DNA from: an uncultured Chloroflexia bacterium
GTDB taxonomy: Bacteria > Chloroflexota > Limnocylindria > Limnocylindrales > CSP1-4
Length of the DNA stretch: 64,000 bases
Direction: 5' to 3'
Assembly (NCBI GenBank): GCA_963813705.1
Contig: CAWFAH010000011.1
Span: 326,341-390,340 of the forward strand
Shown here: piece by piece, positions 37,229 through 50,383 of the stretch
Numbering within the stretch: position 1 is the first letter of the stretch
How the letters are laid out: each line of letters starts with the position of its first letter
The notes under the pieces: generated by a model
Database searches by the model: none
What the model was told of the DNA's origin: nothing
The model's input: the letters and a program-made list of their open reading frames with translations, nothing else
Program-made: the position numbers and the translations under genes

Positions 37229-37720
37229 TCAGGCCCGGGCGGCCCCGGGCCGGCCCCAGCGCTCGAGCTCGCGATCGAGGTCGAGCGGCAGGATGGCACC
37301 CTGGTGCTCGTACTCGCCCCACGCCTCGCGCGGCACCCGCCACATGATCTCGAACTCGTTGCCGTCGGGATCCCGTCCGTAGAGCGACTTCGAGACCCCA
37401 TGGTCGCTCGCCCCGGTCAGGGCCGCAGCCTCGGACAGCACCCCGGCTGCCGCGACCAGGTCGTCGATCGTCGGCACCTCCCAGGCGAGGTGGTAGAGGC
37501 CGACCGATCCGCGCGGCGCGTTCGGCGCGGCCGGTCCGACCGAGAACAGGCCGAGGTCGTGGTGGTTCTCGCCACCGGCCGCGCGCATGAACACCGCGCG
37601 GCCGCCCATCTCCGTCCCGACGACCTCGAAGCCGAACACCCGGCGATAGAACTCCCCGGCCGCCGCGGCGTCGCGGACCCACAGGACGGCGTGGTTGAGG
37701 CGGGCCACCGGGATGCTCAT
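37229..37720 (-). CDS. VOC family protein (extradiol dioxygenase/glyoxalase-like)
   Basis: RLNHAVLWVRDAAAAGEFYRRVFGFEVV...LYHLAWEV...SLYGRDPDGNEFEIMW. Confidence 0.8.
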   Translation of the reverse strand: MSIPVARLNHAVLWVRDAAAAGEFYRRVFGFEVVGTEMGGRAVFMRAAGGENHHDLGLFSVGPAAPNAPRGSVGLYHLAWEVPTIDDLVAAAGVLSEAAALTGASDHGVSKSLYGRDPDGNEFEIMWRVPREAWGEYEHQGAILPLDLDRELERWGRPGAARA

Positions 37721-37823
37721 CGGTCATGCTCCAGACGCATCGCTGCCGCCCGAGCCACCCCCGGCGGACCGGGTCGAGGATACCCGGTCATCGGCGACGG
37801 GTCGCCCGGCGCCGGGCATGACA

Positions 37824-37853
37824 GAGGGGGCGCGCCTGACGGCGCGCCCCCTC
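37824..37853. terminator. Perfect 13-bp stem / 4-nt loop hairpin ending the Tad-like gene string
   Basis: GAGGGGGCGCGCC-TGAC-GGCGCGCCCCCTC, 50 nt downstream of the stop at 37903. Confidence 0.6.
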
Positions 37854-37902
37854 CGGGTCTCGGGGACCCGAGGTCCGGGCTCCGGTCAGGAGCCGTCCGG
37901 GA

Positions 37903-38634
37903 CTACTCCCGGCGGTTCCGCCGGCGGGACCGGTTCGACGACGGGCTGAGCAGCCCGACCGCCACGGCGATCCCGAGGAGTGCGATGAGGACGATCGGCA
38001 GGCCGGAACCCGTCCCGCCGTCGGTGGAGCCGTCGATCGTGGCGGTCGGCGGCAAGGTCGTCTTGGGCGTCCCGGTCTCGGCCTCGACCTCACCCGTCGG
38101 CTTCTCCGTCGGGGTGGCTGTCGGCTCGGTCGGCGACGTGGCGGTCGCCGTCGGGGTGGGGGTCGGGGTCGGCGCGTCGGTCGGCGTCGCCGTCGGGGTG
38201 GGGGTCGGGGTGGGGGTCGGGGTCGGCGTCGCCGTCGGGGTGGGGGTCGGGTCCACGCAGGCGCCGATCTTCAGGTCGTACGTCCGGGTCCAGCCATGGC
38301 TGCCCGTCGGGTCGTCTCCCGCGTGGACGTCGACCGTCGCGCTGTGCGGCTGGGTCGGATCGCCAACGGAGTAGGTGTGGACGAAGCTCGATCCGAACGT
38401 GAACGGAGACCCGGCGATCGGGCTGCCGTCGATGCTGATGGCGACGGTGTTCGTGACTCCGCTGTTGTACTGGGTGAGGCTGACCTTGAGGCCCGAGCTG
38501 CAGGTCAGCGTCGCGTTGGGCACGTGGGCGGCGACCGTTCCGATGGTGAACGCCAGGATGATCAGTGAGCCGCCAACGGCCGAAGCGACCCGCCGGAGCA
38601 GATGGCGCTGCCGTCGATCCTTCGATGCGATCAT
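37903..38634 (-). CDS. Secreted T/P-rich surface protein with C-terminal TM + Arg-rich tail (sorting-signal-like)
   Basis: Preferred start is the ATG at 38634 (MIASKDRRQRHLLRRVASAVGGSLIILAFTIGTVAAHV, a signal peptide). ~110-aa globular part, (TP)n linker, then LPPTATIDGSTDGGTGSGLPIVLIALLGIAVAVGLLSPSSNRSRRRNRRE. Alternative in-frame starts at 38679 and 38790. Confidence 0.7.
   Translation of the reverse strand: MIASKDRRQRHLLRRVASAVGGSLIILAFTIGTVAAHVPNATLTCSSGLKVSLTQYNSGVTNTVAISIDGSPIAGSPFTFGSSFVHTYSVGDPTQPHSATVDVHAGDDPTGSHGWTRTYDLKIGACVDPTPTPTATPTPTPTPTPTPTATPTDAPTPTPTPTATATSPTEPTATPTEKPTGEVEAETGTPKTTLPPTATIDGSTDGGTGSGLPIVLIALLGIAVAVGLLSPSSNRSRRRNRRE
38104..38252. repeat. Tandem hexanucleotide (GGGGTS)n repeat encoding the (Thr-Pro)n linker
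   Basis: The plus strand reads ...gtcggggtgggggtcggggtcggcg...gtcggggtgggggtcggggtgggggtcggggtcggc... On the minus strand this translates as PTPTPTATPTPTPTPTPTPTATPTDAPTPTPTPTATAT. Confidence 0.8.
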
Positions 38635-38761
38635 CTCGATCCGATTCCCTTTCCTGTGCCGCGAGCGGCGAACGAGCATTGCGCCTGGACGGCCGGTCGT
38701 CGCGAACCTGGTGAGGATCGGAAGCGGCGCGGTCCCCGAGGAGGCGTCGGGGGACCCAAAT

Positions 38762-38814
38762 GGGTCATCCCTGCCTAGTACCTTAGTCATGGGACCTTAA
38801 CGGCGGACATTACA
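38762..38814 (-). promoter_or_regulatory. Copy A of a conserved AT-rich upstream element (GTAATG-22 nt-TAAGGT-ACTAG)
   Basis: Minus strand: GTAATGTCCGCCGTTAAGGTCCCATGACTAAGGTACTAGGCAGGGATGACCC. About 75% identical to copy B, with an identical 22-nt spacing between GTAATG and a TANNNT hexamer. Confidence 0.5.
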
Positions 38815-38986
38815 TCCGGCTCGATTTCGGCCCTGTTTGATTACCTTCTGTTGTCAGGACGCCACGGATCGATCAGAGCGGATTATTGCGGTCGAGAGCG
38901 GCCCGCATCGGTGTATTTCGGATGACAACGGTGGCGTGCCGTGCGGTCGGCCGCCGCGCGGGTCGCCGGCCCGGACCTGGACTGGA

Positions 38987-39017
38987 CGAAGCCCGCCGGG
39001 CGGTCCGACGGGCTTCG
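38987..39017. terminator. Hairpin after TadG-like gene 1 (CGAAGCCCG ... CGGGCTTCG)
   Basis: 9-bp stem (38987-38995 / 39009-39017), 40 nt downstream of the stop at 39057. The arm sequence is shared with the hairpins at 41629 and 41794. Confidence 0.45.
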
Positions 39018-39056
39018 CTGCTGGCGGCGGCGACCGGGTCGAGCCCGGACGCTCAG

Positions 39057-41399
39057 TCAGGGGACGATGAGATGGACCGGGTTGCCCCGGATGTCGACCT
39101 GCCAGGTCGTCAGGTCGGTGCTGTAGTCGGACGCCGAGCCCGTCCCCATCGTGTACCGAATCTTCCACCAGCCACGCTCGCTGGTCGTGCTGTCGGTCGA
39201 TGGGTGCGGGGCGCTGTAGGTGGGCGGCAGCTGGACCTCGATCGTCAGCCAGCAGCCGTTGTAGAGGCTGTTCCCGCCGGTGTTCGTGGTGATCGACGTC
39301 GCGCCCTTGACCGTGGCGCTGCTGCAGCTCGAGGCGGCGCCGTCGGACGTCCCGCGGGTCGCGTGGTAGTTGAACGCCACGGGCGTGTAGTCCGTCGCGC
39401 CGGGCTGGAGGATCTCGAGCCGCGCCGAGAGCTGCCCGGTGTCGCCCGGATCCCACAGGTTGATGACCATCGTCTTGCCGGCGTGCACCGCGTCGATCTG
39501 GGCGAGGTAGAACTCGGTCGACCGGCCGGCCGGCAACCGGACGTACGCCTCCATCGCGCCGATGCCGTAGACCCGGGGCGTGCCCCCGTTGGCACTGGCG
39601 TAGATCGCGAAGGCGTTGAGAGCGGTCGTGTTGTTCTGGTCGTTCGGGCTGCCCGGATCGGTCGACGAGGTGTGCAGCCGGTAGGTCGTCCCGTTCGCCC
39701 CGCCGGTCAGGCCGCTCGCCAGCTGGTACCAGCCGCGGCGTGGATTGCTCGGGCTGCCGCTCTGCCAGTTCTCGGCGTCGTAGTGCCAGGCCAGGTTGGA
39801 GCAGTCGCCGATCCCGTTCGTCGGGTTCTGGCCGGCGGCCGCGAAGATGCTTCGGTCCTCGTACGACAGGCGTCGGAACGTAGAGCCCGAGCTGGCGATG
39901 GGGTTCCCGTCGTCGGTCGAGTCGTACAGCGTGTTCTTCGTGTCGTAGAGGTCGTAGAACGCGCTCACCGGCTGGCGCGAGCTGTAGCCGTTGGATCCGC
40001 CGACGGTCCAGTTCTCACCGGTGCCGGCCGAGGTCGTCGAGTCGCAGAAGCCCGGATCGAAGACCCAGACCGAGCCGCCGCTCGACCCGGCGGGCATGTC
40101 GATCGCGTAGTTGTAATACGCGTCCGGCAGGTACTGCGCGTCGGGGTCGGTGTTGTCGACGTTGTTCGGCGCGAACCCGGAGCGCGACTCGTAGCGGGTC
40201 ATGTAGGCGTCGCCCTGGATGTTCGGGGCGCCCTGGCTCTGCATCGCGCCCCAGAAGTTCTGGGGTGCGAGCGGCTGGCCCTGCGGCCCGATCATGTCGA
40301 CGTCCTCGAGGTCAGTGGTCGTCGAGGTCGTGACGGTGTGGAACGTCACCCGCACCTCGAGCGTGTCGACGGCCGCGGTCCGGTTGCAGCCTGCGCCGCG
40401 GAGGTTGGTGATCCGGACCCGGAAGAGGTTGTCGGCGAAGTCGCCGCGGATCCAGGCATGCCCGCCCCAGGCCGCGGTCGAGGCCTGGCTGCCGAACGTC
40501 GTCTGGGTCTCGCTCGTGGTGAGGGTCAGCTGCTGGGCGGTGGACCAGGTCGGGCTGCCGACGTTCCCGTTCCAGGTGGTGTCGATCGACAGCCGGCAGT
40601 TCGTCGTCGTCCCGTTGGTGCCGGTCAGACCGGCACGGAGGCGGACCTCGAGCCCGTCGATGATGGCATTGCTCGGGATCCCGTTGTAGCCGAGGAGCGC
40701 GAAGTTGCCCCACAGCTGGGTCGCGTTGTTCGTGCCCGACGTCGCATACCGGTTGTCGTTGTTGCGGTCGGCGTTGTCGGCCTGGTTCCACGACCCGCTC
40801 AGGGCGTTGGCCGCGTCGTCCCAGCCGGTGTCGTCCTGCGGCCCCGAGGTCGTCTTCGTCGTCGACAGGGCGTCGCGCAGGAAGCCGACTCCGTAGTAGT
40901 TCTGCGGGCTGCCCATGGGCACGGGCAGGACGTACTCGGCCTTTGAGGTTCGCGTGGCCGTGATCGTCGGGATCCCGAAGATCCGCATGAAGTAGGTGTT
41001 GATCGGCGCCGAGATCGTCACGTTGAGGCGGCGCTTGTTGTTGGTGTCCTGGACGGGCGTCACCGTGACCCCGCCGTGGTGGTCGTCGTAGCCGTTCTTG
41101 GTCGCCTCGTCGCGGGCGACGCCATACGCGGTCGACGGGTCGCCGGGCAGCCAGACGACGCCGGCCAGGGCGGCAGCGTCGGCCGCGCGCTGGACGCGCA
41201 GGGTGTTCGCCCAGTACCAGCTGACGTCGACGACGATGGCGGTGATCCCGGTCAGGACGAAGATGCTGATGACGAACAGGACGAGCATCTGGCCGCGGGC
41301 CCGGGCGCCCGCGACCGACGGATGAGTTCGCTGGCAAAGCCGGCTCAAAGCCAATCCCCCTGCTTTCGTACGCGCACCGGGATGGGCCATTCGGGTCAT
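39057..41399 (-). CDS. Large TadG-like protein 1 (N-terminal Tad/TadE-type pseudopilin-like TM segment + >700-aa extracytoplasmic region of unknown fold)
   Basis: ARARGQMLVLFVISIFVLTGITAIVVDVSWYWANTLRVQRAADAAALAGV matches the TadG/Tad_N N-terminus. KAEYVLPVPMGSP follows. The paralogue at 41866..44202 is colinear over the full length and shares the C-terminal GNPVHLIVP. Confidence 0.75.
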   Translation of the reverse strand: MTRMAHPGARTKAGGLALSRLCQRTHPSVAGARARGQMLVLFVISIFVLTGITAIVVDVSWYWANTLRVQRAADAAALAGVVWLPGDPSTAYGVARDEATKNGYDDHHGGVTVTPVQDTNNKRRLNVTISAPINTYFMRIFGIPTITATRTSKAEYVLPVPMGSPQNYYGVGFLRDALSTTKTTSGPQDDTGWDDAANALSGSWNQADNADRNNDNRYATSGTNNATQLWGNFALLGYNGIPSNAIIDGLEVRLRAGLTGTNGTTTNCRLSIDTTWNGNVGSPTWSTAQQLTLTTSETQTTFGSQASTAAWGGHAWIRGDFADNLFRVRITNLRGAGCNRTAAVDTLEVRVTFHTVTTSTTTDLEDVDMIGPQGQPLAPQNFWGAMQSQGAPNIQGDAYMTRYESRSGFAPNNVDNTDPDAQYLPDAYYNYAIDMPAGSSGGSVWVFDPGFCDSTTSAGTGENWTVGGSNGYSSRQPVSAFYDLYDTKNTLYDSTDDGNPIASSGSTFRRLSYEDRSIFAAAGQNPTNGIGDCSNLAWHYDAENWQSGSPSNPRRGWYQLASGLTGGANGTTYRLHTSSTDPGSPNDQNNTTALNAFAIYASANGGTPRVYGIGAMEAYVRLPAGRSTEFYLAQIDAVHAGKTMVINLWDPGDTGQLSARLEILQPGATDYTPVAFNYHATRGTSDGAASSCSSATVKGATSITTNTGGNSLYNGCWLTIEVQLPPTYSAPHPSTDSTTSERGWWKIRYTMGTGSASDYSTDLTTWQVDIRGNPVHLIVP
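41146..41303. repeat. Near-identical 158-bp block shared with 43970-44127 (5' ends of the two TadG-like genes)
   Basis: 3 mismatches in 158 bp (41160, 41175, 41187). 41188-41303 is identical to 44012-44127 (116 bp). The flanks on both sides are clearly diverged. Confidence 0.85.
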
Positions 41400-41446
41400 T
41401 CCGGGACTAGTACGTTAGTCAGGGGATCATTTCGCCCGACATTACA
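41393..41446 (-). promoter_or_regulatory. Copy B of the conserved upstream element (GTAATG-22 nt-TAACGT-ACTAG), ending at the TadG-like 1 ATG
   Basis: Minus strand: GTAATGTCGGGCGAAATGATCCCCTGACTAACGTACTAGTCCCGGAATGACCC. The ATG at 41399 is 12 nt after the TANNNT hexamer, which predicts a near-leaderless mRNA. Confidence 0.5.
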
Positions 41447-41628
41447 GAAGGGCCTTCGGGCACCGTCCGGCCCACGTTGTGGTGCGCGCCGGCCCCGTGC
41501 CGGAGCGGTTTGCCGGGCTGCGGGGTGGACGGGGTTGCCGGGGTGCCTTGCGCCGGGGTCCTCGGGGCTCCGGTGGGCTCCGGCGCGGAGCGGTGGAGCG
41601 CCGTGGTCGCAGTCCGCCGGGGGGACAG

Positions 41629-41667
41629 CACGAAGCCCGCCGGGGCTGGGTTCCGGCGGGCTTCGTG
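41629..41667. terminator. Perfect 15-bp stem hairpin inside the 466-bp spacer between the TadG-like genes
   Basis: CACGAAGCCCGCCGG-GGCTGGGTT-CCGGCGGGCTTCGTG. Confidence 0.5.
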
Positions 41668-41793
41668 GTCGGGAGGGGCCGGGACCCGGGTCCCGACAGG
41701 GGTCAGCGTGCGATCTCGGATGCCCACGGTGCGGCGTCGACCTTTCGGACCGCTTTTCGAGGGTGCGCCGGGGCACCGCCAGGTCCGCGACAC

Positions 41794-41826
41794 GACGAAG
41801 CCGCCGGACGTGCCGGCGGCTTCGTC
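41794..41826. terminator. Perfect 14-bp stem / 5-nt loop hairpin 40 nt downstream of the TadG-like gene 2 stop
   Basis: GACGAAGCCGCCGG-ACGTG-CCGGCGGCTTCGTC. Confidence 0.6.
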
Positions 41827-41865
41827 AGAGTCCGTGTCTGGAGGGGCCGCCCGGCGGCCCGGTCG

Positions 41866-44202
41866 TCAGGGGACGATCAGGTGGACGGGGTTGCCCTTGA
41901 TCTGGACCTTCCAGGTCGTGACGTCGTTCGAGGTCCCCGACCCGGTCATGTTGTACTTGATCTTCCACCAGCCGCTCTGCTGGGCCGTGTAGCCGATCGG
42001 GATGACGACATCGATCGTCAGCCAGCAGCCGTTGAACTGCGAGGTGGGGTTGGCGGTCACGATCGAGCTGACCGCGCTCCCGCTCGCCCCGTTGCAGCTC
42101 GCCGTTCCCGAGGCCGACGTGCCGACGGCCGACGACCAGTCGATGGTCGTGGGCGTCCAGCCCGACGAGGTCGGGATCTCGATCTGGAGGTTGGCGCTGA
42201 GGGGGCTGGTGTCACCCGGATCCCAGAGCTTGATCTCCATCGTCTTGCCCGCGTGGACCGCCTCGATCTGGGCGAGGTAGAACTCGGAGAACGTCGACCC
42301 GCCCGATGCCGACAACGGGGTGAACATCTGCATCGCGCCCAGGCCATAGATCTTCGGCGTCCCGCCGCTCGCGCTGGCGTAGAGGGCGAAGCTGCTCTCG
42401 CCGTTCGTGTTGCGCTGCTGGGCCAGGTTGGACGGGTCGGTCGAGGTCGTGTGGAGCCGGTAGACCGTGCCGTTCGCACCGCCGCTGAGCCCGGTGTACA
42501 GCCGGTACCAGCGGTCGTGGTAGTCGCGCCCGTCGCCGTACTGCGTGGCGGTCGTGTACTTGCACTCCGAGCCGCCGCTGCCGCCCATCGACGTGTCCGA
42601 GGCGGAGATCTGCTTGAACAGCCCGCCCGAGCTCGCCAGCTGGGTGTCGTCGGTGATGTCGTAGAGGGTGTTCTGCGTGTTGTAGAGCTCGAACATCGAG
42701 GACACGCCGTTCGTCCCGCTGAACCAGCGGTCGCCGGTTCCCTTGCTGACCGAGACGGCGCAGAAGACGGGGTCGTAGACGTAGACGCTGCCGTTCGTCG
42801 TGCCGGGCGGCATCTCGACGGCGTAGTTGTAGTAGTTGTCCTCGTCGTAGCACGCCCGGTCGCCGGTGGCGGTGCTGCAGGCCGGAGCCGTCGCCGACGT
42901 CGGCGTGTCGTAGTACGGCTGGAAGGCGTCGCCGTTGATGTTCGCGGCCCCCTCGGTGTTCATCGTGGCCCAGAAGCCGCGCGGGTTGAGCGTGGCGCCG
43001 TCGGCCTCGTAGCAGCTGCCCTTGCCGGTGGTGCAGGCGCTGCCCGGGCCCTGGAGGTTCTGGTCGGGCAGCGTCGTGGTCGTCGTGATCGGCGTCGGGG
43101 TCGCGGTGTCGATCGTGTAGTAGACGCGGATCTCGAGCATGTCGAGTCGCAGCAACGTCCCGGCCGCGCACGACGAACCGCTCTTGAGCGCCGTCGTCCG
43201 GATTCGGATCGGGTCGGTCGCGCTCGTCAGGTCGCCGGGAACCCAGGCGTGGCCGCCCCAGGCCGCCAGCGAGGTGGCGCTGCCCAGCGTGTAGTCAGTG
43301 GTGTTGGTCGTCGTCAGCGTGCCAGTCTGAGTGGCCGTCGTCGTCCAACTCGTGCCTCCGTTCCACGACAGGGCGACCTGGATCCGGCTGCTGGCACAGC
43401 CCGACGCGGTCATGTAGGCATCGCTCAGCCGGACCTGGATGCCGTCGATCGAACTGACCGACTGGCTGCCGCTCAAGCTCGGTGGGAGCGCGAACGTTCC
43501 CCACTGCTGGACGGCGCCAGTCGTGTTCGTCTGGGCGTAGACGTTGTCCGTCGCGCTACCGACCGCGTTGACCAGCGTCCCGCTCGACGTCGACCACCCG
43601 GCCGCGCCCGGCGCTGCGGTGGGCACTTTCCAACCGGTGTCGTCGCTCGACGAGTTGTGGACGATCTGGATCGACGTGCTCGTCGACGTCAGCCCGCGGG
43701 TCAGCCCGAAGTTCCCGTAGTAGTTCTCCGGGCTGCCCATCGGCACCGGCAGGACGTATTCGGCCTTCGACTGGCGAGTCGCCTGGATCGACTGGATGCC
43801 GAAGATCTTCATGAAGAACGTGTTGACCGGGGCGCTGATCGTGACCCACAGGCGCCGGTTGTTGGACGGGTCCTTGACGCTTGTGATCGACACGCCGTTG
43901 ACACCGTCGGTGTAGCCGTTCTGGGTGGCGGTCGTGGCGGCGGTCGCGTAGGCGCTGCCCGGCGCACCCGGCAGCCAGACGACACCGGCCAGGGCGGCGG
44001 CGTCGGCCGCACGCTGGACGCGCAGGGTGTTCGCCCAGTACCAGCTGACGTCGACGACGATGGCGGTGATCCCGGTCAGGACGAAGATGCTGATGACGAA
44101 CAGGACGAGCATCTGGCCGCGGGCCCGAAGCCGTGAGCGGCCGTCCGCGACACGCCGCCTGGCGGCGCGGAGGGTGGTGGCCAGCTGGCCCAGGGGACCC
44201 AT
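41866..44202 (-). CDS. Large TadG-like protein 2 (paralogue of 39057..41399)
   Basis: RLRARGQMLVLFVISIFVLTGITAIVVDVSWYWANTLRVQRAADAAALAGVVWLPG is identical to paralogue 1 over this stretch. KAEYVLPVPMGSPENYYG. C-terminal WWKIKYNMTGSGTSNDVTTWKVQIKGNPVHLIVP. GGAG lies 9 nt upstream of the ATG at 44202, 13 nt after the TadE-like stop. Confidence 0.75.
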   Translation of the reverse strand: MGPLGQLATTLRAARRRVADGRSRLRARGQMLVLFVISIFVLTGITAIVVDVSWYWANTLRVQRAADAAALAGVVWLPGAPGSAYATAATTATQNGYTDGVNGVSITSVKDPSNNRRLWVTISAPVNTFFMKIFGIQSIQATRQSKAEYVLPVPMGSPENYYGNFGLTRGLTSTSTSIQIVHNSSSDDTGWKVPTAAPGAAGWSTSSGTLVNAVGSATDNVYAQTNTTGAVQQWGTFALPPSLSGSQSVSSIDGIQVRLSDAYMTASGCASSRIQVALSWNGGTSWTTTATQTGTLTTTNTTDYTLGSATSLAAWGGHAWVPGDLTSATDPIRIRTTALKSGSSCAAGTLLRLDMLEIRVYYTIDTATPTPITTTTTLPDQNLQGPGSACTTGKGSCYEADGATLNPRGFWATMNTEGAANINGDAFQPYYDTPTSATAPACSTATGDRACYDEDNYYNYAVEMPPGTTNGSVYVYDPVFCAVSVSKGTGDRWFSGTNGVSSMFELYNTQNTLYDITDDTQLASSGGLFKQISASDTSMGGSGGSECKYTTATQYGDGRDYHDRWYRLYTGLSGGANGTVYRLHTTSTDPSNLAQQRNTNGESSFALYASASGGTPKIYGLGAMQMFTPLSASGGSTFSEFYLAQIEAVHAGKTMEIKLWDPGDTSPLSANLQIEIPTSSGWTPTTIDWSSAVGTSASGTASCNGASGSAVSSIVTANPTSQFNGCWLTIDVVIPIGYTAQQSGWWKIKYNMTGSGTSNDVTTWKVQIKGNPVHLIVP
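43970..44127. repeat. Near-identical 158-bp block shared with 41146-41303
   Basis: See the partner feature. The offset between the copies is 2824 bp. Confidence 0.85.
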
Positions 44203-44215
44203 CGTGTCGTACTCC

Positions 44216-44803
44216 CTAGCTCGGGTTGAGGGCCATGACGGTCCGATCGGACATCTGGAAGGCCGGGGTGCCGGCCATGCCGAGGAAGATCCCGAGCGGG
44301 CTGATCAGCTTGTAGCTGTAGACGAGGCTCACCCCGATCGAATCGGGGCTCGCGCCGTTGTCGCGGCCGCAGGCGTTCCAGTTGACGGTGGTCGACTTGA
44401 AGATGAGGGGCACGCCGTCGACCGTCGGGCCGGCGCCCGGGATCCAGGTGTTGACGCTCGAGCCGACCTGGTTGCCATTCGCATCGGCCTTGTAGATCTT
44501 GACCGCGCTGATCCGGCTGATGACGACCGGCGAACCGGGGCTCGTCAGGACGCGCTGGACGCCGGCCACGATCTGGTCGTCGACCTGGGCGCACGGGACG
44601 TTGGTGGTCCCGGGCCCGAGGGCCGCGCCGACGCGGGCACCCTCACGGGTCGCGTACTCCAGGGTCAGGTTGTGGCTGAAGGCGAAGCCGAACTCGAGCA
44701 TTCCGAACAGGAGCATCACGAACACCGGCACGGAGACGGCGAACTCGACCAGCCCCTGGCCGCGACTGCCGGCCCGCCGGTCGGCGAAGCGGCGGCAGCT
44801 CAC
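44216..44803 (-). CDS. TadE-like pseudopilin protein 2
   Basis: N-terminus RAGSRGQGLVEFAVSVPVFVMLLFGMLEFGFAF carries the TadE family signature (G/Q-x-L-V-E-F plus a hydrophobic helix). 4-nt overlap with the upstream TadE-like gene. Confidence 0.75.
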   Translation of the reverse strand: MSCRRFADRRAGSRGQGLVEFAVSVPVFVMLLFGMLEFGFAFSHNLTLEYATREGARVGAALGPGTTNVPCAQVDDQIVAGVQRVLTSPGSPVVISRISAVKIYKADANGNQVGSSVNTWIPGAGPTVDGVPLIFKSTTVNWNACGRDNGASPDSIGVSLVYSYKLISPLGIFLGMAGTPAFQMSDRTVMALNPS

Positions 44804-45399
44804 AGGACGGGCTCCATCCGCATCGCGTTCGACTCGACGAGGGTGTAGCTCGTGGTGCCCAGCCCGATGAACGAGCCGAGCGGGGTGAACGGGGTGTAGG
44901 CGTACGTGATCTTGACTCCGATCGTGTCGACCCCGCCCGAACCCGAGCAGCCGCCCTGGACGTTGCAGCGGCTCGTCTCGGGGTAGCCGGCGGCGCCGCT
45001 CAGCGTGTACGGGACCGTGAGCGTCGTGCTATCCGGGAGGGTGCACGTCTTCGAGCCGGAGCGGACGTACGTGTTGACCTTGCCGGTGAGGGGGTTGCCG
45101 GTCTTGCCCGCCTGGTAGATGTCGACCTGGGTGATCCGGGTCGTGCTGGCCGGCGCGCCGATCCCCTGCTCGACCTTGTTGAGGATCACGCAGTCGGACC
45201 CGACGGCATTGCCGGCCTCGGCCGCAATGAGCGATCCGTCACGGCTCGCGAAGTTGATGCTGAGCATCGCGTTGAACACCAGCCCGAACTCGATCATCCC
45301 CATGAGGAGGACGAAGAAGATCGGGAAGACCAAGGCGAACTCGACCAGGGTCTGTCCCCGATCGGTTGGCCGGTGCTTCGCGCGGAACAAGGTCTTCAC
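44800..45399 (-). CDS. TadE-like pseudopilin protein 1
   Basis: GTG start. KHRPTDRGQTLVEFALVFPIFFVLLMGMIEFGLVFN carries the TadE family signature. Confidence 0.75.
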   Translation of the reverse strand: MKTLFRAKHRPTDRGQTLVEFALVFPIFFVLLMGMIEFGLVFNAMLSINFASRDGSLIAAEAGNAVGSDCVILNKVEQGIGAPASTTRITQVDIYQAGKTGNPLTGKVNTYVRSGSKTCTLPDSTTLTVPYTLSGAAGYPETSRCNVQGGCSGSGGVDTIGVKITYAYTPFTPLGSFIGLGTTSYTLVESNAMRMEPVL

Positions 45400-45471
45400 T
45401 GCGGCGCGCTCTTCCCATCTCGTGGCTGTCCGAGCGAGACGACCCCGGTTGCGGGGCGGTGCCGTGGACAG

Positions 45472-45512
45472 TTCCTAGCCTAGGAAGCAGGACCTTTCGC
45501 GCCGCATTACGA
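45472..45512 (-). promoter_or_regulatory. Copy C of the conserved upstream element (GTAATG-22 nt-TAGGCT)
   Basis: Minus strand: CTTTCGTAATGCGGCGCGAAAGGTCCTGCTTCCTAGGCTAGGAAC. About 75 nt upstream of the TadE-like 1 start, directly after the kinase terminator hairpin. Confidence 0.45.
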
Positions 45513-45537
45513 AAGTGCGCGACTGCACAGCCCGATC

Positions 45538-45557
45538 GTCCGGGGGCAGCCCCGGAC
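45538..45557. terminator. Hairpin GTCCGGGG-GCAG-CCCCGGAC 6 nt downstream of the kinase stop
   Basis: 8-bp stem and 4-nt loop, read directly from the sequence. Confidence 0.5.
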
Positions 45558-45562
45558 CTTCG

Positions 45563-47782
45563 TCAGGCCGGCTGGTCGGAGCGCTCGGCCGGAACGGTGA
45601 AGCGGAACCCGGCGCCGCCCCTCGGGGCGGGCACGTAGCGGATCGAGCCGCCCATCGCGCGGACCAGGCCGCGGGCCACGTCGAGCCCGAGCCCGGTGCC
45701 CTCGAGGCCCTCGCTCGTCGAGCCGCGCTCGAACCGGCGAAAGACTCGGGCCCGCTCGTCCGGGGCGATCCCGGGACCCTCGTCCCAGACCGTGATGGCG
45801 ATCCGTTCCTCGCCGTCGTCCGGCTCGAGGACGACGCCGATCGCGCCGCTGGGCGCGTACTTGATGGCGTTGTCGAGGAGCATCCAGGCGACCTGCTCGA
45901 GGGCGGCTCGGTCGGCGACCGCGACCATCCCGTCGGTCCGATCGTCGAGCGCGAACGGACGGCTCGAGCGGAGCGATGTCCAGACTCGCTGGATGATCGG
46001 CCCCGGGGCGATCGGCTCCTCCTCGACCCGCAGGGTCCCCGACTCGAGCCGTGACAGGGTCAGCAGCTGGCCGACCAGGCGGGCCAGGCGGTCGGCCTCG
46101 GAGCGGATCACCCGCGCGCCCTCGCGCGCGTGATCATCCGTGCGTTCCGCCGTGGCGAGCTCGTCGGCGACGACCACGATGTTGGTCAGCGGAGCCTGGA
46201 GGTTGTGGCTGACGCCGCGGAGGAAGTCCCCTTGGAGCCGAGCCAGCCGGCCGAGCCGGTCGACCCGGTCGAGGGTCCGGGCGTGGACGGTCGCGTCGTC
46301 GGCGGCGGCACGGAGCAGGCGAGCGTAGACGTCGAGGAGCGCCTGGTCCGCCTCGGACCACTCGTGCCCGGCTGGCAGGTGGCCGACGAGACGGAGGTCA
46401 CGCGGGCCGGCCGGGCTTCCGGCACCGACGGGGCCGAGCGCCGCGACGATCGTTCGACCGGGCGGCGTCGCTCCGGCGGCTGGAGCGGGTGTCGCCGCGT
46501 CCGCCGCGTCGGGCCCATCCGGCGCCGGAGAATGAGCCGCCGTCGCCGGCCAGCGGGCGACGACGACCCCACCCTCGTCCTCGAGCGACGCGTCGACGAG
46601 CTCGAAGATCCGGGCCGCGGCGCGCACCCCGTCGGCCTCGACCCGGGCAACTCCGAGGTCCGGCGCCAGGTCGCCCGCGGCCGCGATCGCCTCGCGCAGG
46701 ACCCGGTCCCGGCGGGCCAGGGTTGCGGCCATCCGGTCCAGCGCGGTCGCCAGCCGGCCGATCTCGTCGCGGTCGTCGCCCGGCAGGCGGACATCGAGGT
46801 CGCCCGCCGCCATGGCGCTGAGACCGCCCTCGATCGCATCGAGGCTCAGGCGGAGGCGGCGGCCGAGGAGGATCGCCAGGAGCGCCGCGGCGAGCACCGC
46901 CAGCGCCAGGCCCGCGCCGAGCAGCGGCACGAGCCGGCTGCCGACGGTCTGGACGCCGGCGACGCGCATCGTCGCGACGAACCAGCCCGCAGGCTGGCCG
47001 TCGATCGCGTGGAGCGCCATCGCCCCGCCGACCAGGCCCGCCCGGATCTCGGGAGCCCCGTCCGTGCCGTCCACCGGGACGCCCGGCACGAAGGTCATCG
47101 CGGCGGTCTGGTCGCTGGCGACGCGCAGCGTGCGCGATCGGTCGAAGATGGCCCCGTCGAAGCCGGTGACCTGGCGGGCGTCAACCACGAACGCTGGGTC
47201 GAGCCGCCGGGCGAAGGCGAGCCCGACCGGCCCGTCGCCCGCCACCAGGACGCCCGGTCCGGACCGGCCGGTCAGGTCGACGGACTGGACATCGATCAGG
47301 TAGACCCCATCGCCGAGGTCCGCGTAGATGGGGCCGGACGCGGGTCCGGGCGGCCGGGCCAGGGCCACGACGCCGAGACGGGCGAGCTCCGTTGCGGCCG
47401 CCGACGGTCCGCCGGAGACCGTGCGGTCCCCGACGAGGAGGACGACCACGTCAGCCTCGCCCTGATCGACCTGGAACTGGATCACGTCGCGCCGGATCGA
47501 CTCGAGGTCGTACTTGGCGATCTCGTCCTGGAGGACCGGCCAGGTCACGTAGCTGTCGACCGTCTTGCGGAGGTCCGAGTTGTCGCGATCGAGGACGGCC
47601 TCGACGCCGCGGACGGCCGTGCGCGCCTGCGCGAGCGCCTCCTCGCCGACGACGTCCTCGACGGAGCGCAGCGCGGCGAACCCGAAGACGGCGAGCGGGA
47701 TCACCGCGACGAGCAGGAGGACGACGATGACCTGACGGCGATAGGTGACGCCCCGGGCGCCCCAGCGCGGACCCGTGGGCAC
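45563..47782 (-). CDS. Membrane sensor histidine kinase (TM, large periplasmic region, TM, HAMP, linker, HisKA, HATPase_c)
   Basis: TM VIVVLLLVAVIPLAVFGFAAL and LVPLLGAGLALAVLAAALLAILLG. HAMP LSLDAIEGGLSAMAAGDLDVRLPGDDRDEIGRLATALDRM. H-box VSHNLQAPLTNI. N-box LLDNAIKYAPSG. G-boxes DEGPGIAP and GTGLGLDVA. GTG start 9 nt after the RR stop. Confidence 0.9.
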   Translation of the reverse strand: MPTGPRWGARGVTYRRQVIVVLLLVAVIPLAVFGFAALRSVEDVVGEEALAQARTAVRGVEAVLDRDNSDLRKTVDSYVTWPVLQDEIAKYDLESIRRDVIQFQVDQGEADVVVLLVGDRTVSGGPSAAATELARLGVVALARPPGPASGPIYADLGDGVYLIDVQSVDLTGRSGPGVLVAGDGPVGLAFARRLDPAFVVDARQVTGFDGAIFDRSRTLRVASDQTAAMTFVPGVPVDGTDGAPEIRAGLVGGAMALHAIDGQPAGWFVATMRVAGVQTVGSRLVPLLGAGLALAVLAAALLAILLGRRLRLSLDAIEGGLSAMAAGDLDVRLPGDDRDEIGRLATALDRMAATLARRDRVLREAIAAAGDLAPDLGVARVEADGVRAAARIFELVDASLEDEGGVVVARWPATAAHSPAPDGPDAADAATPAPAAGATPPGRTIVAALGPVGAGSPAGPRDLRLVGHLPAGHEWSEADQALLDVYARLLRAAADDATVHARTLDRVDRLGRLARLQGDFLRGVSHNLQAPLTNIVVVADELATAERTDDHAREGARVIRSEADRLARLVGQLLTLSRLESGTLRVEEEPIAPGPIIQRVWTSLRSSRPFALDDRTDGMVAVADRAALEQVAWMLLDNAIKYAPSGAIGVVLEPDDGEERIAITVWDEGPGIAPDERARVFRRFERGSTSEGLEGTGLGLDVARGLVRAMGGSIRYVPAPRGGAGFRFTVPAERSDQPA

Positions 47783-47791
47783 GAGGCCTCG

Positions 47792-48484
47792 TCAGCCGGC
47801 GGCGACCAACCGGTAGCCCCCGCTCCGGTCGGTCAGGAGATGTCTCGGATCGTCCGGGTCGACCTCGATCTTGCGCCGGAGCCGGCGGATCGCGACCCAC
47901 ACGTACGCCGGATCGGCGCCGTCGGCGTCGCTCCACACCCGGGCCAGCAGCTGCTCGGTCGTGATGGTCGTGCCGAGGTTCGCCGCAAGAGTCGCCAGCA
48001 GTCGCGTCTCGGTCGGCGACAGCCCGATCGTCCGACCGGCGACGATCGCCTCGCGGCGGCGGAGGGCGAGCGACAGGTCGGGGCCGAGATCGAGCAGCTC
48101 GCTCGGGATCCGCTCGTTCAGGCGGCGCAGGACCCGGTGGACGCGGGCGACCAGCTCGGGGTAGTCGAACGGCTTAGTGACGTAGTCCTCGGCGTAGTGC
48201 TCGATGAGCTCCGTCTTCGAGCGCGACGTCGCGACCGCCGAGAGGACCACGATCGGGATGTCGGCACGCCGCTTGATCCCGGCCGCGACCTCCTCCCCGG
48301 ACACGCCAGGCATCATCAGGTCGAGCAGGACCAGGTCCGGCCACGCGTCGTCCACGGCCGCCAGGGCATCCGGGCCGGAGCCGGCAATCGTGACGTCGAA
48401 CCCGTCGCGACGCAGCCGGGCGCCGAGGAACTGGGTCAGCTGCGCGTCGTCGTCGACGAGCAGGAGGCGGTGACGCTGGGTCAT
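47792..48484 (-). CDS. OmpR/PhoB-family response regulator
   Basis: MTQRHRLLLVDDDAQLTQFLGARLRRDGFDV...LVLLDLMMPGVSGEEV. Winged-helix LSPTETRLLATLAANLGTTITTEQLLARVW...VWVAIRRLRRKIE...GYRLV. The ATG at 48484 overlaps the upstream stop (ATGA). Confidence 0.9.
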   Translation of the reverse strand: MTQRHRLLLVDDDAQLTQFLGARLRRDGFDVTIAGSGPDALAAVDDAWPDLVLLDLMMPGVSGEEVAAGIKRRADIPIVVLSAVATSRSKTELIEHYAEDYVTKPFDYPELVARVHRVLRRLNERIPSELLDLGPDLSLALRRREAIVAGRTIGLSPTETRLLATLAANLGTTITTEQLLARVWSDADGADPAYVWVAIRRLRRKIEVDPDDPRHLLTDRSGGYRLVAAG

Positions 48485-49194
48485 GGCCGGAGGCCGTCGT
48501 CTCCGCTTCCGCCGCCGGAGGTGGTCCCGTCCAACGAGCCACCGGTCGGCGTCCCGCCGGTCGTGGAGCCGCCGGTGACCGTCCCGCCGGTCAGGCTGCC
48601 GCCGGTCCCGCTGATCCCGCCGGTCGCGGTTCCGGTGCCCGCGCTGCCGCCGTCGACCGGCTGGCTGGCAATCGTCGTGGACACGGCATGCGGTGGATCG
48701 GGCCGGCGAAGGATCACCGGCCGGCTCGTGGGCTTCGGATCGGCCGTCCCGGCCTGACCGCCCTCGGCCGCGACGACGACCGGCGCAGGACTCGCGATCG
48801 GCCGCGGCGCGGGGACGTCGTCGGCCTCGCTCGTCGGCGCGAACCGGACGAGCAGGCTGGTCGGCGGCCCGCCGGTGCTGACGCGGACCCACACCGTCAG
48901 CCGGGCGCCGATGAACACGGTCCAGGTCCCGGCGTGACCGCTCTCCCGATAGCCGGCCCGGAGGAGCTGGCTGGCATACGCCCCGATCGTCGCGTCGGGC
49001 GACAGGTCGGAGTCGTAGCTGAAGAAGCTCCCCGGCCCGTCGAAGCCGGGCCCGGTCGACCCCAGCTCCAGGGTGGCCAGACGCGGCTGCGGGAGGCCGG
49101 CGAGGTCGGCCGGCTCGCCGACGCCGCCGAACGGCGTCGGCGTCGGCGTCGGTCCGCCGGGGTTGCAGGCGGCCAGAACGACCGTCGCCAGCAC
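48481..49194 (-). CDS. Putative lipoprotein with C-terminal xxTGG pentapeptide repeats; true start probably upstream of the annotated GTG
   Basis: Lipobox VVLAAC sits right at the ORF start. The in-frame upstream codons read LNSINPAHRLGLSILAV-LATVVLAAC, which would be an ideal signal peptide, but no ATG/GTG/TTG is available. There is a CTG at 49242 with AAGGG 7 nt upstream. The C-terminus is GTGTATGGISGTGGSLTGGTVTGGSTTGGTPTGGSLDG. Confidence 0.65.
   Translation of the reverse strand: MLATVVLAACNPGGPTPTPTPFGGVGEPADLAGLPQPRLATLELGSTGPGFDGPGSFFSYDSDLSPDATIGAYASQLLRAGYRESGHAGTWTVFIGARLTVWVRVSTGGPPTSLLVRFAPTSEADDVPAPRPIASPAPVVVAAEGGQAGTADPKPTSRPVILRRPDPPHAVSTTIASQPVDGGSAGTGTATGGISGTGGSLTGGTVTGGSTTGGTPTGGSLDGTTSGGGSGDDGLRP
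48484..48655. repeat. 15-bp periodic repeat encoding about six xxTGG pentapeptides
   Basis: On the plus strand the octamer ccgccggt recurs about every 15 nt between roughly 48550 and 48640. Confidence 0.6.
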
Positions 49195-49393
49195 GGCGAG
49201 GATCGACAGGCCGAGGCGGTGCGCGGGATTGATCGAGTTCAGTCGAGTGCCCTTCAGATCGGTCGCCGGTCGGTGGTCCTTTCCGTCGACCTGACAATCC
49301 TAGCGTCCCGGGACCGGCCAGCCCATCCCAAACCGTCGTCCTGGTCGCGGATGGCCCGAAAGGCGTGGCCCAGACGCACCGCGCGGCGACGCG

Positions 49394-50383
49394 TCACCCG
49401 AGCCGGAGCGCGGGGAGCACCTCGCGCCCGAACACGTCGATGAACTCGGCCTGATTGCGGCCGACGTTGTGGAGGTGGATCTCGTCGAAGCCCATGTCGA
49501 CGAAGTGCTGGATCTGGCTCGTGTGCCACTCGAGGTCCGAGCTGATCTGGCAGCGGTTCGTGAAGTCCTCGGGCCGGACGAGCCGGGCCATCGCCGCGAA
49601 GTCCTCGGGGTTCTTGATGTCCTGCTTCGGGAAGGGCATCCCGCCGTTCGGCCACTCGCTGAGCGCGTTGTCCATGGCCTGCTGCTCGGTGGGCGCCCAG
49701 CTGATGTGGATCTGGAGCAGCTTGGGCATCTGCGCCGGGTCCTTGCCGGCCTCGCGGGCCCCTTCGGCGAACCGATCCCAGAGCAGCCCGATCTTCTCGT
49801 CGGCGGCCCCGACCGTAATGATCCCGTCGGCCTGCCGTCCGGTGCGCTTCGCGTTGACCGGGCCGGCGGTCGCGACGTAGACCTTGACCGGCGTATCCGG
49901 GCGCGTGTAGAGCTTCGCGCTCTCGAGCGTGAAGTGCTCGCCGCGGTGACGGACGACCGACCCGCCGAACAGCTTGTTGATGATGTCGATCGCCTCGAAC
50001 AGCATCGAGCTGCGGACGCCGATCTCGGGCCAGACGCCGCCGATCACGTGCTCGTTGAGCGCCTCGCCGGCGCCGAGGCCGAGCCAGAAGCGACCCGGGT
50101 ACATGGCCCCGAGGGTGGCCGCCGCGTGGGCGATCACGGCCGGGTGGTAGCGGAACCCGGGGCAGGTCACGGCGGTCCCGAACGGCAGCGACGTGCGCTC
50201 GCCGAGCGCGCCCATGAAGCTCCAGGCGAACGCGCTCTGGCCCTGCTGCGGGGTCCATGGGTGGAAGTGCTCCGAGACCATGAACCCGGCACCGAAACCG
50301 GCCGCCTCGGCCCGGGCGCAGTAGTCGAGCAGGTCCGTCGGGTGGAACTGCTCGAGCATCGCGGCGTAGCCGATCTTCGACAT
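49394..50383 (-). CDS. LLM-class F420-dependent oxidoreductase (F420-dependent glucose-6-phosphate dehydrogenase family)
   Basis: MSKIGYAAMLEQFHPTDLLDYCARAEAAGFGAGFMVSEHFHPWTPQQGQSAFAWSFMGALG...LGLGAGEALNEHV is highly characteristic of the FGD/TIGR03557 group. Confidence 0.85.
   Translation of the reverse strand: MSKIGYAAMLEQFHPTDLLDYCARAEAAGFGAGFMVSEHFHPWTPQQGQSAFAWSFMGALGERTSLPFGTAVTCPGFRYHPAVIAHAAATLGAMYPGRFWLGLGAGEALNEHVIGGVWPEIGVRSSMLFEAIDIINKLFGGSVVRHRGEHFTLESAKLYTRPDTPVKVYVATAGPVNAKRTGRQADGIITVGAADEKIGLLWDRFAEGAREAGKDPAQMPKLLQIHISWAPTEQQAMDNALSEWPNGGMPFPKQDIKNPEDFAAMARLVRPEDFTNRCQISSDLEWHTSQIQHFVDMGFDEIHLHNVGRNQAEFIDVFGREVLPALRLG

Follow-up and report, generated by a model that had tools for sequence, protein, structure and literature searches.

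We analysed a 64,000-nucleotide stretch of DNA (the window) from a soil metagenome-assembled genome (MAG) of the Limnocylindria, a class of the Chloroflexota, in which three copies of a short element, A, B and C, lie on the minus strand of a locus encoding TadE- and TadG-like pilus-tip proteins. The elements are real, strongly conserved promoter-like modules placed before pilus-tip (TadE/TadG) genes. We propose, with a probability of roughly 60%, that they are class II activator-dependent promoters of the PhoB/GlnR type that are specific to the Tad minor-pilin ('tip') cassettes of Limnocylindria. They would most likely be switched on by the response regulator of a neighbouring two-component system, and the assignment to one of two particular regulators, RR-A or RR-B, is somewhat less certain than the activator-dependent reading itself. 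The proposal is drawn from anatomy and association and not from demonstration. The motif is also more general than was recognized in an earlier note on this DNA, in that it marks pilus-tip cassettes across the class.

The earlier note, which was made from the letters alone, had described GTAATG at exactly 22 nt from a TANNNT hexamer in three copies. A pattern search bore this out, with exact minus-strand matches to GTAATG-N22-TANNNT at 38780-38813 (A), 41412-41445 (B) and 45477-45510 (C). When the window was shuffled 100 times with dinucleotide frequencies preserved, the mean was 0.19 matches and the observed count was never reached. GTAATG is itself rare, occurring 59 times on both strands of this 3.17-Mb, 72% G+C genome. 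Genome-wide, the full pattern is found five times, as A, B and C together with one match in a 23S rRNA gene and one in a lower-GC island. We take the last two to be chance matches; a genome-wide GTAATG regulon was rejected because the only exact matches outside the locus are these two. The elements are indeed the AT-rich patches that had been described, with a G+C content of 49-56% compared with 72% for the window. The accompanying description of TANNNT as an actinobacterial feature was misplaced, as the organism belongs to the Chloroflexota. The elements and their parts (half-site 1, spacer, half-site 2, spacer and candidate -10 hexamer) are as follows.

38775-38813, minus strand: element A (type I), heading the gene for an anchored, threonine- and proline-rich (T/P-rich) protein; GTAATG at 38808-38813, GTTAAG at 38796-38801, TAAGGT at 38780-38785 and an invariant ACTAG at 38775-38779; GTAATG - tccgcc - GTTAAG - gtcccatgac - TAAGGT.
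41407-41445, minus strand: element B (type I), heading the second TadG-like gene; GTAATG at 41440-41445, GAAATG at 41428-41433 and TAACGT at 41412-41417; GTAATG - tcgggc - GAAATG - atcccctgac - TAACGT.
45458-45537, minus strand: element C (type II), whole conserved block, heading the TadE-TadE-TadG operon; GTAATG at 45505-45510, GAAAGG at 45493-45498 and TAGGCT at 45477-45482; GTAATG - cggcgc - GAAAGG - tcctgcttcc - TAGGCT.

The three copies share a common plan, in which half-site 1 occupies positions 1-6 and half-site 2 positions 13-18, followed after 10 nt by TANNNT at positions 29-34. The pair of AATG/AAGG half-sites previously seen in each element is present and forms an imperfect tandem direct repeat, GTAATG-N6-G(A/T)(A/T)A(G/T)G, which in its general form is a direct repeat of G[T/C/A]AA[T/G]G followed by 9-10 bp and TANNNT. 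Measured from start to start, the half-sites are 12 bp apart in every copy, although an 11-bp register (TAATG-n6-GAAAG) is also possible. A GGTCC/GATCC block reported as common to the elements is real and is the tail of half-site 2, and the ACTAG...GGATGACCC similarity between A and B is equally genuine and belongs to a hairpin. The repeats span roughly -40 to -22, which is the usual site of the -35 box. At the -35 position the elements read GTCGGC or GCGGCG, and a sigma-70 scan for TTGACA-N16-18-TATAAT-like pairs across 37500-49600 returned no sites. The genome has TTGACA-type promoters elsewhere, such as TTGACA-N18-TAGTGT before one flp gene. A standard sigma-70 housekeeping promoter was rejected for the elements because no TTGACA-like -35 box lies 16-18 nt upstream of the -10 hexamer.

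The two types differ in what surrounds this plan. Type I reads GTAATGTC-N13-CC-N-TGACTA-NN-GTACTAG and is followed by the hairpin GGATGACCC-N4-GGGTC. Because its invariant blocks flank a 13-nt stretch of fixed length and variable sequence, and are not complementary to each other, its conservation pattern looks like the signature of protein-DNA contacts and not of an RNA helix. The core of type II is CACTTTCGTAATG-N-GGCGCGAAAGGT...CCTAGGCT, and its GTAATG forms the centre of an imperfect inverted repeat, GCACTTTCG-N10-CGAAAGGT.

Replacement of the -35 contact by a response regulator is a textbook mechanism. In the model that we favour, a winged-helix response regulator would bind the two repeats head-to-tail as a dimer, supply the missing -35 contact and recruit the housekeeping RNA polymerase. 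We favour it because the elements have the geometry described for the pho box and half-sites similar to those that GlnR binds head-to-tail around a poor -35. The top candidate is RR-A, an OmpR-family regulator encoded just upstream (47792-48484), and its paralogue RR-B, which has a near-identical recognition helix, could bind as well. We infer a transcription start just after TANNNT and the binding there of a response regulator with an activating, not a repressing, effect.

We assessed conservation in a comparison set of 19 genomes of the same genus and 22 from other genera, using a whole-genome pattern search for type I. The locus is syntenic in 14 of the congeneric genomes. Type I is represented by 20 copies in 15 of the 19, all of them in this locus and without a mismatch at 26 fixed positions, and type II by 19 copies in 17 of the 19, always before a TadE or TadG gene. 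Neither type was found elsewhere in the genomes of the genus or in the 22 genomes of other genera. Mean pairwise identity around type I is 43% at -200 to -61, 55% at -60 to -1, 89% inside the element and 75% over the hairpin, and the TadG proteins are 46-79% identical. Because identity within the elements is so much higher than in the diverged upstream spacer and the TadG proteins, the elements are under purifying selection and are no by-product of TadG duplication.

Co-occurrence of type I with RR-A is strict, with 15 genomes having both and 4 having neither. The same strict relationship was considered for type II and rejected, because it fails in genomes G013 and G018. The overall pattern probably reflects a single loss event. 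In these two genomes (loci L138 on G013:C4 and L063 on G018:C2) the syntenic locus no longer contains the lipoprotein-regulator-kinase genes, the anchored protein or type I, and a luciferase-like monooxygenase gene leads straight into type II-TadE-TadE-TadG. Both genomes keep type II and even the terminator hairpin of the kinase gene, and in G013 the type II-TadE-TadE-TadG unit is duplicated.

The architecture extends beyond the genus. We examined the DNA upstream of the first TadE gene in 54 TadG loci from other Limnocylindria MAGs. Many of these regions carry GCAAGGTC-N4-GCAAGGTy followed by TAGGCT-like hexamers, and the consensus before TadE-TadE-TadG in other genera is GCAAGG-N6-GCAAGG-N9/10-TAGGCT. 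A loose tandem pattern, [GT][CTA]AA[GT]G-N6-[GT][CTA]AA[GT]G, is present in 25 of 47 upstream windows of 240 bp. The density of the tandem repeat, counted on both strands, is 2.2 per kb upstream of TadE compared with 0.025 per kb in the rest of the same loci, an 87-fold enrichment. Among 50 distinct promoters, comprising types I and II of the genus together with those of other genera, repeat 2 and TANNNT are separated by 10 nt in 32 cases and by 9 nt in 9 (41 of 50 together). Since the tandem repeat and its spacing to TANNNT recur across the Limnocylindria, GTAATG is the local variant, with AATG for AAGG, of a class-wide tandem repeat. Individual loci of other genera show further variants. The half-sites are swapped in L043 (GAAATG-N6-GTAAGG-N10-TAGGCT), and L075 has a type I-like GTCATG-N6-GTAAGG-N9-TAACGTACTGG before an orthologue of the anchored protein. 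In 13 genomes, orthologues of this protein also follow type I. The -10 and discriminator sequence of type I, CTAA(C/G)GTACTGG, likewise occurs after TadG in two other genera (L075:6380 and L088:5896), and this recurrence suggests that the bases just after the -10 hexamer matter too.

Further candidate sites in this genome (G000) are few. The stricter pattern AAKG-N8-AAKG-N9-13-TANNNT finds only B and C, and the looser tandem pattern has few non-coding matches genome-wide. One of these, GCAATG-N6-GCAAGG, precedes a third TadG-like gene (C1:40728). Another, GAAAGG-N6-GTAAGG, precedes a TadE-like gene (C11:898864) directly behind a gene pair for RR-B and its kinase. The latter belongs to a paralogous module (C11:897098-901577) that consists of RR-B at C11:900798-901577, the kinase, this tandem repeat and a 573-amino-acid protein with a TadE-like N terminus. 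The flp pilin promoter, which reads CTAATG-N21-TATAGT in G000, was considered as a member and rejected because TAATG is not conserved across the 19 genomes. The flp promoter is conserved in those genomes in another form, GGTACCA...TATATTCAC...CCCTCGACTGGGGGTG, without the tandem repeat.

The locus reads, in minus-strand order, lipoprotein, RR-A, kinase, element C, TadE, TadE, TadG-like, element B, TadG-like, element A, anchored protein and a VOC-family (glyoxalase-type) enzyme. The annotated genes and terminator-like hairpins are listed below.

48481-49194, minus strand: lipoprotein, first gene of the lipoprotein-regulator-kinase operon.
47792-48484, minus strand: RR-A, an OmpR/PhoB-family response regulator and candidate activator (Pfam Response_reg and Trans_reg_C).
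45563-47782, minus strand: HAMP-HisKA-HATPase sensor kinase, partner of RR-A (Pfam).
~45533-45560, minus strand: terminator-like hairpin after the kinase gene (folding).
44800-45399, minus strand: TadE-like pseudopilin gene 1 (Pfam TadE).
44216-44803, minus strand: TadE-like pseudopilin gene 2 (Pfam TadE).
41866-44202, minus strand: TadG-like gene 1 (Pfam Tad, PF13400, at the N terminus).
39057-41348, minus strand: TadG-like gene 2 (Pfam Tad, PF13400, at the N terminus).
38985-39030 and 41790-41830, minus strand: terminator-like hairpins after the two TadG genes (folding).
37903-38634, minus strand: anchored T/P-rich secreted protein behind element A (open reading frame; no Pfam match).

The Pfam TadE E-values for the two pseudopilin genes are 3e-14 and 4e-15. 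The hairpins after the kinase gene and both TadG genes have G+C-rich stems of 13-15 bp and folding energies of -27 to -47 kcal/mol (z = -2.7 to -3.7), with -44 and -47 kcal/mol for those after the TadG genes. Each element lies 3' of such a hairpin and 5' of the next gene, so each heads a plausible transcription unit, in agreement with what had been claimed. The hairpins lack T-tracts and resemble terminators of this high-GC lineage.

The closest solved relatives of RR-A are MtrA, RegX3, RpaA, KdpE and PhoP. In the syntenic locus of the 15 genomes with type I, RR-A has an identity of 88-98%. RR-B is 55% identical to RR-A in this genome and 54-57% identical across congeneric genomes. The recognition helices of RR-A and RR-B, YVWVAIRRLRRKIE and YVWVTMRRLRTKLE, are near-identical, and this similarity would fit binding to related half-sites. 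The subfamily formed by these two regulators has at most two members in each congeneric genome scanned (E <= 1e-45), and in G000 both adjoin Tad cassettes. RR-B is present in genomes without RR-A. Of the 54 cassettes in other genera, 14 are flanked by regulators with 51-72% identity to RR-A, and a sister family with small genomes has neither TadG nor an RR-A-type regulator. The suggestion in the earlier note of an activator site plus a -10 hexamer, possibly for the adjacent OmpR-type regulator, thus agrees with the anatomy, the conservation and the regulator neighbourhood; the link to the adjacent gene is loosened by the two genomes that keep type II without it.

Several observations weigh against activator-dependent promoters served by RR-A. 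The 12-bp period of the repeat exceeds the 10-11 bp that is usual for OmpR/PhoB regulators. Repeat 2 of type I is weak, while CC-N-TGACTA-NN-GTACTAG and the hairpin are invariant, and a simple dimer site does not explain the invariance of CC-N-TGACTA, GTACTAG and the hairpin. In type II, a different and symmetric regulator might use the inverted repeat around GTAATG. The promoter of the regulator operon itself has no tandem repeat and so gives no sign of autoregulation. Finally, G013 and G018 lack the lipoprotein-regulator-kinase genes at the locus and yet have type II intact, so the adjacent regulator would not be strictly required, unless RR-B substitutes for it. Possible explanations are that type II can be served by RR-B, that the genes were deleted recently or that a different protein binds.

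We looked for transcription starts in soil metatranscriptomes in which the locus is represented, from this species or from a congener; the material consisted of Logan contigs only, with 2-7x coverage. Run X24 has two contigs that begin at the type I -10 hexamer or shortly downstream of it, and an upstream contig that ends 20 nt before GTAATG. These starts were not reproduced in four other soil runs (X28, X29, X32 and X33), in which contigs cross type I and break 20-40 nt upstream. We regard the breaks in these four runs as branch points of the assembly graph, because they sit where conservation among co-occurring species begins. The type II region is similarly patchy in the metatranscriptome contigs. 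The contig ends coincide with the edges of the conserved block and neither support nor refute the predicted start site. In one soil metatranscriptome, the spacer between TadG and type I of G011 (L102:15298-15575) has a contig depth of 7.3 compared with 3.7 in the neighbouring leader and gene; it could represent a stable fragment of the 3' untranslated region or a small RNA.

The points raised by the palindromes and by the two deletion genomes lead to the alternative that the elements, as promoters or operators, are recognized by some other protein, such as a repressor or a symmetric dimeric regulator acting on the inverted repeats (the one centred on GTAATG in type II and GACCC-N4-GGGTC after type I). 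Such a protein would account for the persistence of type II in G013 and G018 without an adjacent regulator, for the imperfect palindrome in type II and for the invariant ACTAG and hairpin palindrome of type I, which a tandem-repeat site leaves unexplained. It would also suit the many cassettes of other genera that have the repeat but lack a regulator gene in the ~2.7 kb before the first TadE and in the 4 kb after TadG. However, the feature that is conserved across the class is the tandem repeat at a fixed distance from the -10 hexamer, whereas the palindromes are specific to the genus, and RR-B, with its almost identical recognition helix, is present where RR-A is missing. We therefore consider a different protein unlikely. 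An action at the RNA level seems less likely again. On this account the elements are transcribed as part of a long transcript from TadE to the anchored protein and serve as a signal for processing, stability or translation control, with A acting jointly with the 150-nt leader behind it. That metatranscriptome contigs span type I in four soil runs, that a hairpin follows both types and that the leader behind A is 82% conserved all speak for it, although the contig depth is low enough that DNA carry-over may explain the spanning contigs. The RNA account is further opposed by the lack of an Rfam match, by covariation close to zero (1 of 38 pairs compensatory), by core invariant blocks that are not mutually complementary and by strong terminator-like hairpins upstream of each element. 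The fixed distance to TANNNT across genera is, moreover, what would be expected of a promoter feature at the DNA level.

Two further explanations carry little weight. An alternative-sigma promoter, which had been raised previously, would take GTAATG as the -35 box and the downstream block as the -10 box, and would make sense of two invariant blocks at a fixed spacing without a standard -35. Promoters of the sigma-70 family have a spacing of 16-19 nt, however, and neither the 22 nt from repeat 1 to TANNNT nor the 9-10 nt from repeat 2 falls in that range; an extracytoplasmic-function (ECF)-type promoter was rejected for the same reason. The upstream part is also a tandem duplication of a single motif, which is typical of a dimeric regulator, and the locus contains no sigma gene, so that this explanation is very improbable. 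It is scarcely credible that the similarity is a functionless consequence of segmental duplication or gene conversion between TadG paralogues, a possibility that the earlier note had set out for A and B. Elements A and B do flank paralogous genes, and cassettes duplicate as units together with their type II element. Nevertheless, A precedes a non-paralogous gene, conservation is far above that of the flanking spacer in 15-17 genomes, and other genera and unlinked loci show the architecture too.

The region behind element A contains two additional conserved features.

38749-38771, minus strand: hairpin directly after element A, GGGATGACCC-ATTT-GGGTCCCC.
38635-38748, minus strand: conserved leader from the hairpin to the ATG at 38634 (13-genome alignment).

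The hairpin has a folding energy of -17.9 kcal/mol (z = -2.5), and across 13 genomes its GACCC/GGGTC stem is invariant and its loop variable. It may be either a 5'-terminal stem-loop of the predicted transcript or a palindromic operator. The leader has a mean column identity of 82% over the 13 genomes, with 80 invariant columns, and is missing from G002. Over the ~150 nt between element A and the gene (38635-38774, minus strand), conservation is far higher than in the protein that follows. A search against Rfam gave no relevant match at E <= 5, and the covariation term for the leader from RNAalifold was +0.06 kcal/mol, essentially zero. A structured RNA was rejected on these two results. A conserved upstream open reading frame that ends in ATGA at the start of the anchored protein was also rejected, as about half of the 13 genomes lack it or have it in a different frame.

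A fourth copy of the element had been proposed upstream of the lipoprotein gene. We rejected it as a member, as the sequence is conserved but has no second half-site and a different register.

49297-49330 (conserved block to 49345), minus strand: different promoter-like element, with TAGGAT at 49297-49302 and no tandem repeat.

The lipoprotein-regulator-kinase operon has in this place a separate, genus-conserved promoter-like block of its own, GGTATGGGAG-N14-CGCTAGGATTGTCAGGTCGACGGAAAGG (49297-49345, minus strand). The core tad machine lies outside the window, 375 kb from the locus on the same contig (G000 C11:743800-751010), and is complete, with three flp pilin genes, cpaB, a tadZ-like receiver protein, cpaF, tadB and tadC.

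In combination, the tandem-repeat promoters and the RR-A and RR-B systems might form a class-wide switchboard for choosing among several interchangeable Tad tip cassettes, and among co-regulated anchored surface proteins, for display, with the invariant type I discriminator, the hairpin and the 150-nt leader adding a new RNA-level control on the anchored-protein gene; we regard this extended scheme as doubtful. Limnocylindria are abundant Chloroflexota of soil and fresh water, and we know of no cultured representative and of no described promoter or regulon. The analysis provides a concrete cis-element, tandem GNAAKG repeats followed after 9-10 bp by TANNNT, and a candidate regulator subfamily for multi-copy Tad tip cassettes. 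Should the two prove to be linked, this would show how an uncultured lineage picks an adhesive tip for one pilus machine and would offer a sequence signature for co-regulated surface proteins in MAGs.

The closest parallels are found among known response-regulator promoters. In the E. coli pho box, according to PMC4971064 (citing Makino 1986 and Blanco 2002), two direct repeats are bound by a head-to-tail PhoB dimer next to the -10 box and substitute for the -35 box. Here, similarly, 9-10 bp separate the end of an 18-bp repeat unit from TANNNT, and a -35 box is lacking. The pho box differs in having 7-bp repeats with an 11-bp period at phosphate genes, whereas the elements described here have 6-bp repeats with a 12-bp period at pilus-tip genes, another sequence and another signal, and binding to them is a prediction. 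The a and b sites of actinobacterial GlnR (gTnAc-n6-GaAAC) are bound head-to-tail by an OmpR-family regulator around a non-optimal -35 (PMC10235972). The resemblance is limited to the style of the half-sites, GTAAT(G)/GAAAG(G) here and gTnAc/GaAAC there. GlnR, an orphan regulator of nitrogen genes, uses two 22-bp boxes, four protomers and an 11-bp period, in contrast to the one repeat pair, the kinase partner and the other phylum in the present case. We rejected an actinobacterial GlnR box as such because of the Chloroflexota host, the single repeat pair and the 12-bp period.

For the pili themselves, the Myxococcus Kil Tad pilus has interchangeable TadE/TadF/TadG 'Tip' complexes (PMC12075869), and the genomes here likewise carry several cassettes of the TadE-TadE-TadG type, separate from the core tad machine. 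That work deals with protein function; neither a shared cis-element nor a two-component system dedicated to the cassettes is described in it (PMC12075869). Our literature search found no paper on Tad regulation in Limnocylindria. Regulation of this general sort is known from elsewhere: Tad/Flp pili are reportedly under response-regulator control, for example by PprAB in Pseudomonas aeruginosa and by CtrA at pilA in Caulobacter. As in those systems, a response regulator encoded near the tad genes or acting on them is predicted here to switch on pilus genes. PprAB and CtrA belong to other subfamilies or recognize other motifs, and they act on the major pilin or the machine, whereas the motif described here marks minor-pilin cassettes and does not occur at the flp promoter of the genus. 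The predicted control would be of a familiar type, but in a lineage for which no such control had previously been described.

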